Shown here: positions 1,736 through 9,787 of the stretch, piece by piece | Layout: every line of letters begins with the position of its first letter | How positions within the stretch are numbered: position 1 is the stretch's first letter | Translations under genes and position numbers: made by a program | Source: Escherichia phage EC22.5-2 | Strand: one strand, 5' to 3' | Sequence record: OR845139 | DNA length: 42,480 bases | The notes under the pieces: generated by a model | Told to the model about the DNA's origin: nothing | Databases searched by the model: none | What the model saw: the letters and a program-made list of their open reading frames with translations, nothing else

Positions 1736-1766
1736 CCTATAGCATCCTATGGGGTGCTATGTGAAG
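1736..1766 (+). promoter_or_regulatory. Conserved intergenic hairpin element, copy 1 (cctatagcatcctatggggtgctatgtgaag)
   Basis: 7-bp stem 1741..1747 / 1752..1758 with tatg loop; near-identical element at 2521..2550 with compensatory A-U to G-C change. Confidence 0.45.
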
Positions 1767-1800
1767 TAATTACCTAAACAACCAATCAAAGAGGTGCATC

Positions 1801-2385
1801 ATGACTAAAGCAACTAATTCAACTGCCAAAGTATTCAAGTTAACCGCTGCGGGTAGCATCCGTAAAGCGCTGGGCGATGTAGTGGAAGCAAAGCGCAATA
1901 TCACTATTAGTGCACTGTTTCACGGCCTGATTAGTAGTAACGTTTCTTGGGCGACGGATATGCAGCGCAGTGATGCCGCTGATTTCGATATGGTGCTGCG
2001 TACTTTGTTACCTATCAAGTTCAACAAGGAGTCGGGCAAGTACGAATTCCACGCTAAAAAGTGTTATGCATCGGCTGAGAAGCTGGGTATTGAGCTGGAT
2101 AGTGTGCGTCTGGATTATAAACAAGCTGACAAGCAAGGCCGTGAAGTTATTGTAAACAACTTCTATAGCGCCTGTATGGCCCTGTACGCTGCTGAAGCAG
2201 AGCAAGTGAAGAATGATGCCCTTGATGCCGATGCAGTGCGCTTGCAAGCTCTGGGGCGCGTTAAAAACGCCATCAAGAAGGCTAAAGAAACTGGGGTGAG
2301 CGACTCTGATTTGGTGAGTATGCTTATTAGTCAGGGCGTGGATGTACGCGCTGTACTGGATGCAACTTTGAAGGTAGCGGCATGA
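1801..2385 (+). CDS. Early protein, unknown function (194 aa)
   Basis: ATG with aagaggtg RBS; no recognisable motif. Confidence 0.7.
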   Translation: MTKATNSTAKVFKLTAAGSIRKALGDVVEAKRNITISALFHGLISSNVSWATDMQRSDAADFDMVLRTLLPIKFNKESGKYEFHAKKCYASAEKLGIELDSVRLDYKQADKQGREVIVNNFYSACMALYAAEAEQVKNDALDADAVRLQALGRVKNAIKKAKETGVSDSDLVSMLISQGVDVRAVLDATLKVAA

Positions 2386-2513
2386 TTTATAAGATTCAAG
2401 CTATCAAGTGGTGGGCATTGATTCCGGCAGCTAATGACTCTGACGCCTTTGATGTGCCAACCCGGGGCCGCCATAACAGGTGGCACTATGAGGGATTGGG
2501 AGAATACGTATAA
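2382..2513 (+). CDS. Small ORF (43 aa) translationally coupled to the upstream gene, not in ORF track
   Basis: ATGA start/stop overlap at 2382..2385; hand translation MIYKIQAIKWWALIPAANDSDAFDVPTRGRHNRWHYEGLGEYV; ends just before hairpin element 2. Confidence 0.3.
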   Translation: MIYKIQAIKWWALIPAANDSDAFDVPTRGRHNRWHYEGLGEYV

Positions 2514-2520
2514 TGGTAAG

Positions 2521-2550
2521 CCTATAGCGTCCTGCGGGGCGCTATGTGAA
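2521..2550 (+). promoter_or_regulatory. Conserved intergenic hairpin element, copy 2 (cctatagcgtcctgcggggcgctatgtgaa)
   Basis: 7-bp stem 2526..2532 / 2537..2543, tgcg loop; 27/30 identity to copy 1. Confidence 0.45.
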
Positions 2551-2573
2551 TACCGTTAACAACGAGGTTTCAA

Positions 2574-2795
2574 ATGAAAGCAAAGCTAATCTATCCTGGG
2601 CATGTACTCTGGCCCGTATGGTGCAATCAAGTGCATGCAGAGTATAACTATACTGTGATGATATTCTCTGACCGCGACACCAATCAGGAATCCCCTTTAG
2701 ATCTCGTAGACACCCATACCGAAGCAGCGGCGCGTACTTTGCTGGATGCCGTGAATCTCGGTATTATTACCGACTGGAGACAACTTTATGACTAG
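2574..2795 (+). CDS. Early protein, unknown function (73 aa)
   Basis: ATG with gagg RBS upstream. Confidence 0.6.
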   Translation: MKAKLIYPGHVLWPVWCNQVHAEYNYTVMIFSDRDTNQESPLDLVDTHTEAAARTLLDAVNLGIITDWRQLYD

Positions 2796-7042: not shown

Positions 7043-7260
7043 TGAGGGTTGTTAATATTGTAGTAACTGACAGGGGGCGCAACCACGCTGCGGCAGACTT
7101 AACCCTGAATAAGGTATACACCGCTTTCCGCTCCGAGGTGGGGGATTTCGTCAACGGGTGCGTAAACGAGTTTACGTATTACGAACTGGTAGATGACGTG
7201 GGGGACCACTGTGGAATCTACGAGAATTACCAAGGGATAGTGCTGCACGAGGTGCCATAA
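7042..7260 (+). CDS. Hypothetical protein (72 aa)
   Basis: TAATG coupling; ORF-track start 6952 would overlap the upstream gene extensively. Confidence 0.5.
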   Translation: MRVVNIVVTDRGRNHAAADLTLNKVYTAFRSEVGDFVNGCVNEFTYYELVDDVGDHCGIYENYQGIVLHEVP

Positions 7261-8048
7261 TGGACCAACCCTGGCTTAGAGCGTGCAAGCGCCTGGCCGT
7301 GGGGCAGAGGGCACGCTTTCGGTGCTGCGGCAGGGACGCCGCCGGGGTGCTCTACAATAACCCAGATGCCTGGGAATACTACTGCCACCGCTGCAAACAG
7401 GTAGGCAAGGAGCGCAAGCAGTACCAGCGCATACATTTACAGGAAGAGCCGAGGGTGCAGCCCTCTGCACCTGCAGATGCAATTTGCATTAGCCAAGCGC
7501 CTGCGGAAACGCAGAGTTTTATTTACGGATTCCTGACCACAAAGGGAATCATGCCTGAAATGGTGGAGGATGCAGAATGGAGCAAAGAGAAACAGCGGAT
7601 AATCTTCCGTGTCGGAAGCGCTGCTCTGGGCCGTGCAGTGCATGCCCGACAGCAACCGAAGTGGGTAATGTACGGCCAGCCAATACCGTTCGCTGCCGTG
7701 GGACCTGCCGTAGCACCGGCTGTAGCTGCGGCCGCACCTCTAAAGGTCGTGCTCACCGAGGACTTACTCTCAGCCCTGAAGATACAGCACGCAGTTACGA
7801 GCTACAGTGCGTTGAACGTGCAGGCTATAGCTATGCTGGGTACACGCTTGCCCACGCCACTGAGAGCTTGGTTGATTCAGAATCGCCCGGAAGTGATTCT
7901 GATGCTGGACAATGACCCGGCAGGACACGCTGGGGTAGCGGCAGCGCGCAAAGCACTGCGCCCGTTCATGCGGTGCCGAGAACACTACTTCACTGCGGAC
8001 CCTAAGGACGCAGAAATCAAAGAGATACTGGAGGCGCTTAATGTTTAA
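7260..8048 (+). CDS. DNA primase (zinc-binding domain plus TOPRIM)
   Basis: N-terminal CxxC...CxxC (FRCCGRD...YYCHRCK); TOPRIM-like E (VLTEDLLSA) and DxD (LMLDNDPAGHAG). Confidence 0.8.
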   Translation: MDQPWLRACKRLAVGQRARFRCCGRDAAGVLYNNPDAWEYYCHRCKQVGKERKQYQRIHLQEEPRVQPSAPADAICISQAPAETQSFIYGFLTTKGIMPEMVEDAEWSKEKQRIIFRVGSAALGRAVHARQQPKWVMYGQPIPFAAVGPAVAPAVAAAAPLKVVLTEDLLSALKIQHAVTSYSALNVQAIAMLGTRLPTPLRAWLIQNRPEVILMLDNDPAGHAGVAAARKALRPFMRCREHYFTADPKDAEIKEILEALNV

Positions 8049-8243
8049 GAACAAATACAGGGTAGTCACAGATACCTATTTGGGATATGAGGCACAGGTA
8101 AAATTCTAGTGGTTACCAATTAAATGGTGGATGATTAGCCGTAGTGGCCGGGGTGTCGGTATAAATACTAATAGGACTTTGAAAGATGCAGAGTTACTCT
8201 GCCGTATGCATCACAGCGGTGCTAGCGTATACAAAGTGGAGGT

Positions 8244-8471
8244 ATGATGAGCGTACAACTAATTAGCCATGTTTGCGATTGTGGAAAGGGGTATCGCTCT
8301 TGGCATGACCTGAAATGTGGGCACTGTCGCAGTAAGCAAGAGGAGCGCAAGCTGGTACAGTACCACCAAGCATTAGAAGACGCAAAGCGGCGACTACAGT
8401 TAGAATATTTCCGCCACTACGTCCATGAAGTTGGCGGCCCAAACAGGACTATCAGGGTGGAGGTGGTATAA
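8244..8471 (+). CDS. Small Cys-rich protein (zinc-ribbon-like CxC...CxxC), unknown function
   Basis: HVCDCGKGY...KCGHCRSK; ggagg RBS. Confidence 0.55.
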   Translation: MMSVQLISHVCDCGKGYRSWHDLKCGHCRSKQEERKLVQYHQALEDAKRRLQLEYFRHYVHEVGGPNRTIRVEVV

Positions 8472-9752
8472 TTGGACCTTATAGTTGTTAAGGCGATGTG
8501 CACGCAGAAGGTCTGGAACCGACTGCGAGAGCAGATACCCAAGTCTATGCTTGCGCCGGACACCTCGAACCTACTGGACTGGGTAGGGCTGTACTGGAAC
8601 ACGTACCCAGAGCACCAGGAGGTGCAGTGGGACGCAATGCAGAGCATGCTCAACCTCCGGGCTGGACACCTATCCCGTGAAGAGCGGGTGATTATGGACG
8701 AGCTTATGCGGGGAGTACAAGCCGTACCGCAGGATTCTGTGGTGGGGATTGTGCAGACCCTGAACGAGCTGGCGTACAGTGGAGAGGTCGCAGCGCTCAC
8801 GCAGCGCTACCAAAACGGGGAGGAAGTTGATTACCTGCTGGAGATGAAGCACCTCCAGCGCAAATACGGTGATGGTGCTGCTGTTCATGATTCGCTGCTT
8901 GAATGGGAGAGCGGAAGTGTTGACGAAATACTTGCCGCGACTGACGAGAGCGGTGGTCTTAAACTGGGCGTGTTCGAGCAACTCGCTAGCAACATCCGAG
9001 GTCTGCGTGGCGGGGACTGTATCGCAGTGGCTGCTCCTGTGGACTCTGGTAAAACTAGCCTGCTTGCTGCTATTGCTGTGGACTTTGCTGAGCAGATGCA
9101 GCAACAGCCGGAAGTATACGGGGACCGCCCGATTCTCTGGCTGGTTAACGAGGGTCCGGCGACGCGTACAGTGCCGAGGGTATATCAAGCGGCGCTGCAC
9201 TGGACTCTGGCTGAGATTAAGGACCGGCACAGTAAGCAAGAGTTCGTGCCAGCCTACCTCAAGAAAGTAGGCAGGGCTGACCGGATTCGTGTTAAGGCTG
9301 CGCACTCCTTGACGATGGCTCAGATATCCACGCTCATGGAGGAGATGCGCCCAGCGGTAATCATCATCGACATGGTGGCGAATATCCGTGGCGGCACTAT
9401 GGAAACCGAGCACCAGAACCTAGAGGCGAAGTGGCAGGAGCTGCGTATCCTGGGGTGTGAGAATGACTGTGCTGTTATCGGTACTATGCAGCTTTCACTC
9501 GAAGGTTACAACCTACTGTTCCCACCGCTCACGGCGATGAAGCAGAGTAAGATTGGTGTACAAGGTGCTTTGGACTTGGCGATTATGATGGGGTGCTTGG
9601 ATAGGAACGAGCAACCGCACATGCAAAACATCCGTGGTATCAGTACACCCAAGAACAAGATGGCACTATCAGGTAAAGAGTCGCTATTACAGTTTGAGGT
9701 AGCATTCGACCCAGGCAGATGCCGCTTTAATGAGGGCCAGATTAACAAGTGA
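8472..9752 (+). CDS. Replicative DNA helicase (DnaB/T7 gp4 helicase-domain-like)
   Basis: Walker A AAPVDSGKTSLL; sits after primase as in T7-like phages; TTG start with ggagg RBS (ATG 8496 alternative). Confidence 0.8.
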   Translation: MDLIVVKAMCTQKVWNRLREQIPKSMLAPDTSNLLDWVGLYWNTYPEHQEVQWDAMQSMLNLRAGHLSREERVIMDELMRGVQAVPQDSVVGIVQTLNELAYSGEVAALTQRYQNGEEVDYLLEMKHLQRKYGDGAAVHDSLLEWESGSVDEILAATDESGGLKLGVFEQLASNIRGLRGGDCIAVAAPVDSGKTSLLAAIAVDFAEQMQQQPEVYGDRPILWLVNEGPATRTVPRVYQAALHWTLAEIKDRHSKQEFVPAYLKKVGRADRIRVKAAHSLTMAQISTLMEEMRPAVIIIDMVANIRGGTMETEHQNLEAKWQELRILGCENDCAVIGTMQLSLEGYNLLFPPLTAMKQSKIGVQGALDLAIMMGCLDRNEQPHMQNIRGISTPKNKMALSGKESLLQFEVAFDPGRCRFNEGQINK

Positions 9753-9755
9753 CTT

Positions 9756-9787
9756 CCCTAGCGCCTTCCTAGAGGGCGCTATGTAGG
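9756..9787 (+). promoter_or_regulatory. Intergenic hairpin element, copy 3 (related to 1736 and 2521 elements)
   Basis: Perfect 7-bp stem tagcgcc / ggcgcta around a 9-nt loop, followed by tgtagg; shares cctaGCG..CCT...GGGCGCTATGT core. Confidence 0.4.

Follow-up and report, generated by a model that had tools for sequence, protein, structure and literature searches.

Escherichia phage EC22.5-2 (sequence record OR845139) carries hairpins between several of its early and middle genes, and these hairpins are the subject of our analysis. The window, that is, the whole stretch of 42,480 nucleotides, has a perfect 77-nt direct repeat at both ends (1-77 and 42404-42480, with a G run at the end of the repeat), which indicates that it is a complete linear genome. 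Its first 12 kb show 82-90% identity to Drulisvirus genomes (KP34-like, Autographiviridae, Slopekvirinae), and 256 records match this part, including Escherichia phage Minorna and Klebsiella phage KPV811. In the annotation of Minorna, early and middle genes abut or overlap nearly everywhere. Carried over to the window, this annotation leaves sizeable early and middle gaps only at 1730-1800, 2514-2573 and 9753-9808, and these gaps are the three hairpin sites. A first-pass annotation of the letters alone had placed related elements between plus-strand genes; all three do lie in intergenic gaps on the coding strand.

The first two sites hold closely related copies, referred to as class A, and the third holds a separate hairpin, referred to as class B (Table 1). 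The extended fold, with 20 nt of flanks, reveals one architecture at all three sites, approximately 20-22 base-pair steps and 45 nt long. It consists of a lower stem of 6-9 bp, an interrupted segment, a 10-bp upper stem with U·G wobbles and a loop of 3-4 nt. The elements described previously are the upper part of these longer interrupted hairpins, which have about twice the length given at first. At each of the three sites the 5' end locates at the upstream stop codon, whose three letters (TAA, TAA and TGA) are the first three bases of the lower stem.

Table 1. Hairpins of the window. R1 is the covariance model built from the class-A alignment; z compares the fold with shuffled sequences.
Feature	Position	Strand	Upstream gene (stop)	Lower stem	Upper stem	Loop	Next gene	Fold, score and conservation
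Class-A hairpin copy 1	1727..1772	+	71-aa gene 1514-1729 (TAA)	UAAUUAC/GUAAUUA, 1727-1733 with 1766-1772	10 bp, 1738-1747 with 1752-1761	UAUG, 1748-1751	start 1801	-19.5 kcal/mol, z = -2.4; R1 76.6 bits, E = 5e-20
Class-A hairpin copy 2	2511..2558	+	43-aa gene 2382-2513 (TAA)	UAAUGGUA/UACCGUUA, 2511-2518 with 2551-2558	2523-2532 with 2537-2546	UGCG (UNCG-type), 2533-2536	start 2574	-28.5 kcal/mol, z = -4.2, 0/200 shuffles as good; R1 69.1 bits, E = 1e-17
Class-B hairpin	9750..9791	+	helicase gene 8472-9752 (TGA)		10 bp, UAGCGCCUUC/GAGGGCGCUA, one U·G wobble	CUA (3 nt)	start 9809	fold with flanks -24.2 kcal/mol; conserved in 39 distinct Drulisvirus copies
Fourth, related long hairpin	1450..1498	+					gene 1514-1729	weak R1 match at 1459-1489

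In copy 1 (1736-1765, CCTATAGCATCCTATGGGGTGCTATGTGAA), the interrupted segment comprises an internal loop AG/AA, an isolated C1736-G1763 pair and a C1737·U1762 mismatch. In copy 2 (2521-2550, CCTATAGCGTCCTGCGGGGCGCTATGTGAA), the internal loop and the core are identical to those of copy 1. The identity between the two elements had been put at 27/30, and by our count it is 26/30, with four differences; a repeat search aligns the copies at 28/32 (88%). Two of the differences are in the loop (UAUG versus UGCG); the remaining two are an A to G and, opposite it on the other arm of the stem, a T to C. The compensatory change noticed at first is therefore real, turning an A-U pair into a G-C pair. A degenerate pattern of 30 nt matches only the two class-A sites in the window, and none of 100 dinucleotide-preserving shuffles matches it.

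The class-B hairpin is interrupted by a C·U mismatch, a C-G pair and another C·U mismatch. The perfect 7-bp stem reported earlier for this site is present as seven consecutive pairs, UAGCGCC/GGCGCUA, within the longer upper stem. At 9756-9787, the letters CCUA..GCG...GGGCGCUAUGU are common to this hairpin and both class-A copies. Kinship with class A is further seen in the common 3' strand GCGCUAUGU, in the C·U mismatch and C-G pair below the 10-bp stem, and in the stop-codon placement. We searched the whole window with R1 with its filters off and recovered the two class-A copies and the weak match at 1459-1489; class B was not found. As R1 misses class B, the two classes cannot be joined by this model. 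We treat the third member of the proposed family as a class of its own.

The short hairpins fold at -12.9, -16.1 and -15.9 kcal/mol (z = -3.0, -3.6 and -2.4). On the minus strand, the long folds reach -16.6 kcal/mol at copy 2 and -17.3 kcal/mol at class B, versus the larger plus-strand values of Table 1, whereas at copy 1 the two strands are about equal (-19.0 kcal/mol on the minus strand).

Three scans of IMG/VR gave 115 loci, from which we took 83 distinct class-A copies of 64 nt, belonging to four phage lineages. All 83 align without any internal gap or indel. Sixteen columns are invariant across the four lineages, CUA-AGC on the 5' side and G-GCUAUGUGA on the 3' side. We specified a structure of 20 pairs and, as a control, slid the 3' partners by 1-3 columns. 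Standard pairs fill 90.9% of the cells, compared with 25.6-43.0% in the slid versions. Twelve of the 20 pairs are altered on both sides, in 329 cells. Covariation scores 0.448, versus 0.129 after shuffling (0/500 reach it) and at most 0.141 in the slid versions. The selection on RNA structure that the first-pass annotation had suspected is borne out by this covariation in related phages.

The lower-stem pairs occur as 3-5 pair types each, with variants such as UUAC/GUAA, GGUA/UACC, UGAU/AUCA, UUAAU/AUUAA, CUAGUAGCA/UGCAACUAG and AGUAAAUA/UAUUUACU. The top of the upper stem appears as GCGUCC/GGGCGC, GCAUCC/GGGUGC, GCCUGC/GUGGGC, GCCUUC/GAGGGC or GCGUCA/UGGCGC, and the loops are mostly UACG, UGCG, UUCG, UCCG or UAUG. 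Meanwhile, two U·G wobbles are near-invariant, being found in 83/83 and 81/83 copies. On the window, R1 gives the plus-strand scores listed in Table 1, and 13-15 bits on the minus strand. Because the wobbles are near-invariant and R1 favours the plus strand, the structure belongs to the sense RNA. Class B, for its part, occurs once in essentially every Drulisvirus locus recovered, and its distinct copies are invariant over 42 consecutive columns, with variation only in the loop.

The position of the hairpin between genes is equally constant. An upstream open reading frame (ORF) was identifiable for 73 of the 83 class-A copies, and for 69 of these 73, the 5' arm of the lower stem coincides with the stop codon or is only a few bases away from it (offsets -3 to +5). 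The start codon that follows, together with its ribosome-binding site, comes 13-33 nt past the hairpin, and the orientation is always that of the genes. What the data show are sense-strand mRNA hairpins that are selected for both structure and sequence and are placed at gene boundaries. The genes flanking class-A copies form 16 unrelated groups upstream and 4 downstream. Those of the window belong to different PHROGs, all of them function-unknown, and have no Pfam match; the ORF upstream of copy 2 is a member of a real gene family (phrog_10968, E = 2.5e-29). Since the flanking genes come from many unrelated families, the element is a general intercistronic feature, and for the same reason we rejected a gene-specific operator. 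Our findings establish that the hairpins are RNA elements acting in cis within the polycistronic mRNA of the early and middle genes, which the host RNA polymerase makes.

Several relatives carry additional or rearranged copies. In two loci (L007:9125-9188 and L028:200-263), a single hybrid hairpin joins the left flank of site 1 to the right flank of site 2, from which it follows that approximately 0.8 kb between the repeats was deleted by recombination. A site-1 copy with GCAUCC/GGGGCGC, and hence an A·C mismatch (L049:12982-13045), looks like a partial conversion by the site-2 copy. In three loci (L021:6880-6943, L035:4498-4561 and L049:12894-12957), we notice that a third copy of class A follows site 1 at a distance of 88 nt downstream, and that it has a compensated lower stem of its own, UUAAU/AUUAA. 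A different hairpin, AUAGCGCAGC...GUUGCGCUA on the sense strand, lies upstream of site 1 in L004 (7388-7451) and also in L001, L022, L026, L029, L044 and L046; its antisense strand happens to contain GCGCTATGT, and the window is without this hairpin. Another candidate in relatives, CTAGCGCA...TGCGCTATGT, was rejected, as it is a different hairpin and antisense to the genes; the window lacks it.

The core CCUAUAGC-N12-GCUAUGUGA is found in Drulisvirus, in the SP6-like Vectrevirus/K1-5 phages, in Pectobacterium/Dickeya phages of the PP16 and BF25/12 type and in phiEco32-like phages, all of which infect Enterobacterales. K1-5 contains one copy of the core, between genes 5 and 6, upstream of its RNA polymerase gene. 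phiEco32 itself carries the core and has no annotated single-subunit RNA polymerase. In the phiEco32-like Escherichia phage KM01, the element is on the gene strand. A second, weaker class-A match is seen in KM01 directly after another small gene (L122:29453-29522 (-), 25.7 bits, E = 1.7e-4). Outside Drulisvirus only the core is common, and the stem top, the loop and the flanks differ in a compensated manner, which argues for long-term selection on the core and not for recent transfer of the whole element.

By blastp, no ORF of the window matches both K1-5 and KM01, and thus there is no obvious common binder encoded by these phages. In the representatives of 185,579 bacterial species, a scan for the core returned two matches only, both in metagenome-assembled genomes, with R1 scores of 14-15 bits that are not convincing. 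On this basis, we rejected a host-encoded origin of the identical core, as well as mimicry of a CRISPR repeat (clustered regularly interspaced short palindromic repeats) or of a repetitive extragenic palindromic (REP) element. The presence of the core in unrelated Enterobacterales phages, next to unrelated flanking genes and in the absence of a common phage protein, points to a host factor, rather than a phage factor, that would act on it.

The class-A motif has been published under another label. In five phages, Eriksson et al. reported AGCCTATAGCGTCCTACGGGGCGCTATGTGAA at two early positions; they named it the 'putative phage promoter' of the proposed genus Kp34likevirus and offered nick sites as the alternative (Eriksson et al., 2015; PMC4411677). 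This motif corresponds to hairpin sites 1 and 2 (window 1734-1765 and 2519-2550). Their account is without the hairpin, the flank pairing, the third site (9750-9791) and the occurrence outside the genus, and our literature search found no treatment of the motif as RNA. A promoter for the phage single-subunit RNA polymerase would suit a motif that is intergenic, upstream of genes, and unique among the repeats of KP34-like genomes in exceeding 20 nt (PMC4411677). However, a polymerase chain reaction fragment of the motif region yielded no RNA with purified KP34 RNA polymerase in vitro, and the actual promoter of this enzyme has a different sequence, T(A/G)ATGTTACAGGAGTA (Lu et al., 2019; PMC6834552). 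The latter occurs exactly in the window at 20720-20738, after the RNA polymerase gene, and at 32299-32317 in the late region, with variants at 592-610 (left end, one mismatch) and 12716-12734 (poorer, after the DNA polymerase gene). The core is also carried by SP6-like phages, which have only a distant relative of this polymerase (25% identity), and by phiEco32, in which such a polymerase is not annotated. Moreover, covarying flanks and U·G wobbles are not required of a double-stranded promoter. The promoter label is contradicted by these observations. We are scarcely more inclined to an element that acts as DNA, be it a site-specific nick site as in the alternative of Eriksson et al., a cruciform, or a mobile gene-shuffling intergenic cassette like the T4-type promoter-early stem-loops (PeSL), and we hold it to be very unlikely. 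The 0.8-kb deletions in L007 and L028, the partial conversion in L049 and the sharing of the core by unrelated phages would fit such an element, but recombination is an expected by-product of repeats and need not be their function. The conserved U·G pairs would become A·C mismatches on the other strand, where R1 falls from 69-77 to 13-15 bits; the UNCG tetraloops are a feature of RNA stability; and the hairpin always follows the orientation of the genes and abuts a stop codon. The motif is not known to resemble the nick consensus of phiKMV. A transcription terminator or pause site for the host RNA polymerase is the least credible of all, although a stable, GC-containing hairpin at gene ends could suggest one. 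As the first-pass annotation had pointed out, no U tract follows the stem at any of the three sites, and a terminator scan gave no match there. Each site is followed by replication genes that are essential, yet the three hairpins have no new promoter-like sequence and no match in a sigma-70 scan. We conclude that the hairpins are neither promoters nor terminators.

Among the readings that act on RNA, a site for a sequence-specific RNA-binding protein of the host or the phage deserves attention, even if we find it unlikely. Here the invariant internal-loop core would be recognised and the helices would act as the scaffold, as in a translational operator, an RNA chaperone site or an antitermination site. 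In lineages that are otherwise unrelated, four in number, the internal loop keeps its 16 invariant flanking nucleotides while the remainder drifts with compensation, and the hairpin ends 13-33 nt before the next start codon; both agree with such a site. On the other hand, Drulisvirus, K1-5 and phiEco32-like genomes have no protein in common by blastp, making a phage-encoded binder unlikely, and the many unrelated flanking families do not suit a gene-specific operator. The bacterial scan speaks against mimicry of an identical host operator, and the RNase III sites of T7 likewise combine a conserved core with variable ends. A related and rather improbable reading takes the core, AGCC-UAUAGC ... 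GCUAUG-UGAA, as a horizontally spread RNA module, which would recruit a host factor other than RNase III, or RNase III with a specificity partner, and so control the fate of early mRNA. The reason for seeing more than an RNase III site in it is that the core stays unchanged in four unrelated lineages while the rest drifts. Such a module could also serve as a decoy against a host RNA-targeting defence. About equally doubtful is a passive 3' stabiliser or decay barrier, which would itself stay uncut and would block 3' to 5' exonucleases or insulate neighbouring cistrons, the cut being made at another place, for instance in the downstream A/U-rich spacer by RNase E. Very stable hairpins with UNCG-type tetraloop caps, placed immediately after stop codons, would do well in this role, and the hybrid copies persist without a lower stem. 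A simple barrier, however, needs no upper stem fixed at 10 bp, no invariant internal loop and no lower stem that covaries in a constant register.

The reading we prefer, with moderate confidence and by analogy with phage T7, is that the hairpins are processing signals for host RNase III, which would work like the T7 R sites and leave a protective 3' hairpin on the upstream message. E. coli RNase III has been described as acting on stems of about 22 bp that show preferred pairs in the vicinity of the cut (Altuvia et al., 2018; PMC6212723). In the proposed mechanism, the host enzyme would attach to the helix over its two turns and cleave it inside the conserved internal loop or beside it. From the T7 pattern, UAU^GAU, in which the cut is 3 nt beyond a 10-bp upper stem, we would place the cut on the 3' side near GUGA^A, approximately at 1764/1765 in copy 1, 2549/2550 in copy 2 and 9784-9785 in class B. 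The upstream message would keep a stable 3' hairpin, capped by an UNCG-type tetraloop, that may block 3' exonucleases, and the downstream message would be freed a few nucleotides ahead of its ribosome-binding site.

A number of observations weigh against RNase III processing. R1 finds no match in T7, and the family is not a sequence homologue of the consensus of the T7 R sites. The internal loop is symmetric here (2x2, one C-G pair, 1x1), whereas that of T7 is asymmetric. The 16 core nucleotides are invariant in four lineages, which a sequence-specific binder could explain, and this invariance exceeds the sequence requirement generally ascribed to RNase III. The flanks of the hybrid hairpins in L007 and L028 cannot form a lower stem, and the lower stem is dispensable, at least in the short term. 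Class B is conserved but comes without covariation evidence; its 32-nt core folds at z = -2.4, but with flanks z is -1.2, no better than shuffles. Our literature search found no cleavage or transcript-end data for any Drulisvirus.

We also looked for further members of the family. The hairpin at 1450-1498, GUUAAUAAUUAGCAUCCUA ... UAGGGUGCUAAUCAUUAAC, consists of 19 pairs, with an A·C mismatch and a U·G wobble occurring once each, and its segment UAGCAUCCUA/UAGGGUGCUA matches the upper stem of copy 1. It is kept in a subset of relatives, where GCAUCC/GGGUGC changes in a compensatory manner to GCGUCC/GGGCG and a 2x2 internal loop is present. A search of the window for GGNGCTATGT gave fewer matches than expected by chance, the exact one being at 34706 in a coding region. 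The occurrence of GGCGCTATGT at 34706 was rejected as a coincidence, since the region is conserved as coding in relatives. A sliding free-energy scan of the window (64 nt) was dominated by GC-rich coding regions and was therefore of no help in finding further family members. An Rfam scan of 1-13000 at E <= 10 returned chance-level matches only, and the best one at a hairpin site, to a microRNA model, scored 20.4 bits versus a gathering threshold of 82.

Apart from this family, the window contains other repeats and hairpins. The non-coding left kilobase has tandem TAGTATTGG-like repeats with a 10-nt period and several GCTATCTCTAG repeats (406-440, 537-559, 768-826 and 827-849). A sigma-70-like match at 1055-1083 marks the host promoter region. 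Between this region and the first hairpin, a GC-rich hairpin GGGGCGCUGAGGCGCUGCCCC is followed by UUAAAAGAAU (1366-1390); its role may be that of an early attenuator or a pause site. A near-perfect hairpin of 27 pairs with an A/U-rich loop occupies 12637-12700, just between the DNA polymerase gene and the promoter-like sequence at 12716, and overlaps a sigma-70-like match at 12635-12664. This, too, could be a place where double-stranded RNA is processed. At 25193-25230, a strong intrinsic terminator, GCCCCUGGUGCCUUCGGGUGCCGGGGGC followed by U9, is a near-match to the conserved terminator of Eriksson et al. (2015).

If the RNase III reading is right, the hairpins form a second sequence class of T7-style intercistronic processing elements, present in Drulisvirus, SP6-like, Pectobacterium/Dickeya and phiEco32-like phages. 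Such a class would aid the annotation and operon mapping of therapeutic Klebsiella and E. coli phages, and would offer compact insulator or stabiliser parts for phage engineering. The repeats are also natural deletion sites, which matters for gene insertion in this region. The published annotation is corrected as well: Lu et al. (2019) left the motif without a function, and the RNA-hairpin reading gives it a testable one. The kind of element described here is well known, its sequence class is new, and the literature is corrected along with it; the result is useful, and a specialist will not find it surprising.

The comparison with known systems begins with REP-type 3' stem-loops, which are stable, stand directly after stop codons and can protect upstream cistrons from 3' exonucleases. 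The present hairpins resemble these stabilisers in being stable stem-loops right after stop codons. Unlike REP elements, which are host-encoded, they have no convincing core copy in the 185,579 bacterial species genomes, and they possess a fixed two-stem geometry and an invariant internal loop. The T4-type PeSL, reportedly described by Arbiol et al. in 2010, are said to be short intergenic stem-loop repeats in the early region where genes are lost or shuffled by recombination. Recombination at the repeats is a common trait, as the hybrid copies in L007 and L028 illustrate. In contrast, PeSL include an early promoter, and no promoter-like sequence is present at the hairpins here; the core is common to different phage families, and the structure is under selection at the RNA level.

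The closest comparison is with the R sites of T7, whose cleavage by RNase III has been demonstrated. As the RefSeq record of T7 is without annotation of RNase III sites, we folded the regions around the cleavage positions, which we take to be those given by Dunn and Studier in 1983. The conserved UAU^GAU served to check these positions, and it is found exactly at 1468 and 5887. Folding of R0.3, R0.5, R1, R1.1, R1.3 and R4.7 gave upper stems of 9-13 bp and loops of 3-5 nt. In the upper stem, the bottom is conserved as AAGGUC/GGCCUU, with a U·G wobble among its pairs, and the top is variable. Most of the sites add an internal loop (CUC / UAUGAU) and a lower stem of approximately 7 bp, which in R0.5 takes in the gene 0.4 stop codon. 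In sequence the two systems are unrelated, with CUCAAGGUC...GGCCUUUAUGAUU in T7 versus AGCCUAUAGC...GCUAUGUGAA here. The likeness to the T7 early sites suggested in the first-pass annotation thus lies in the architecture, and cleavage of the present hairpins would follow by analogy. In both systems, a hairpin of about two turns has an upper stem of approximately 10 bp, an internal loop and a lower stem. Both lie between cistrons on the sense strand of polycistronic mRNA, without a U tract, and both combine a conserved core with drifting ends and a U·G wobble in the bottom half of the upper stem.

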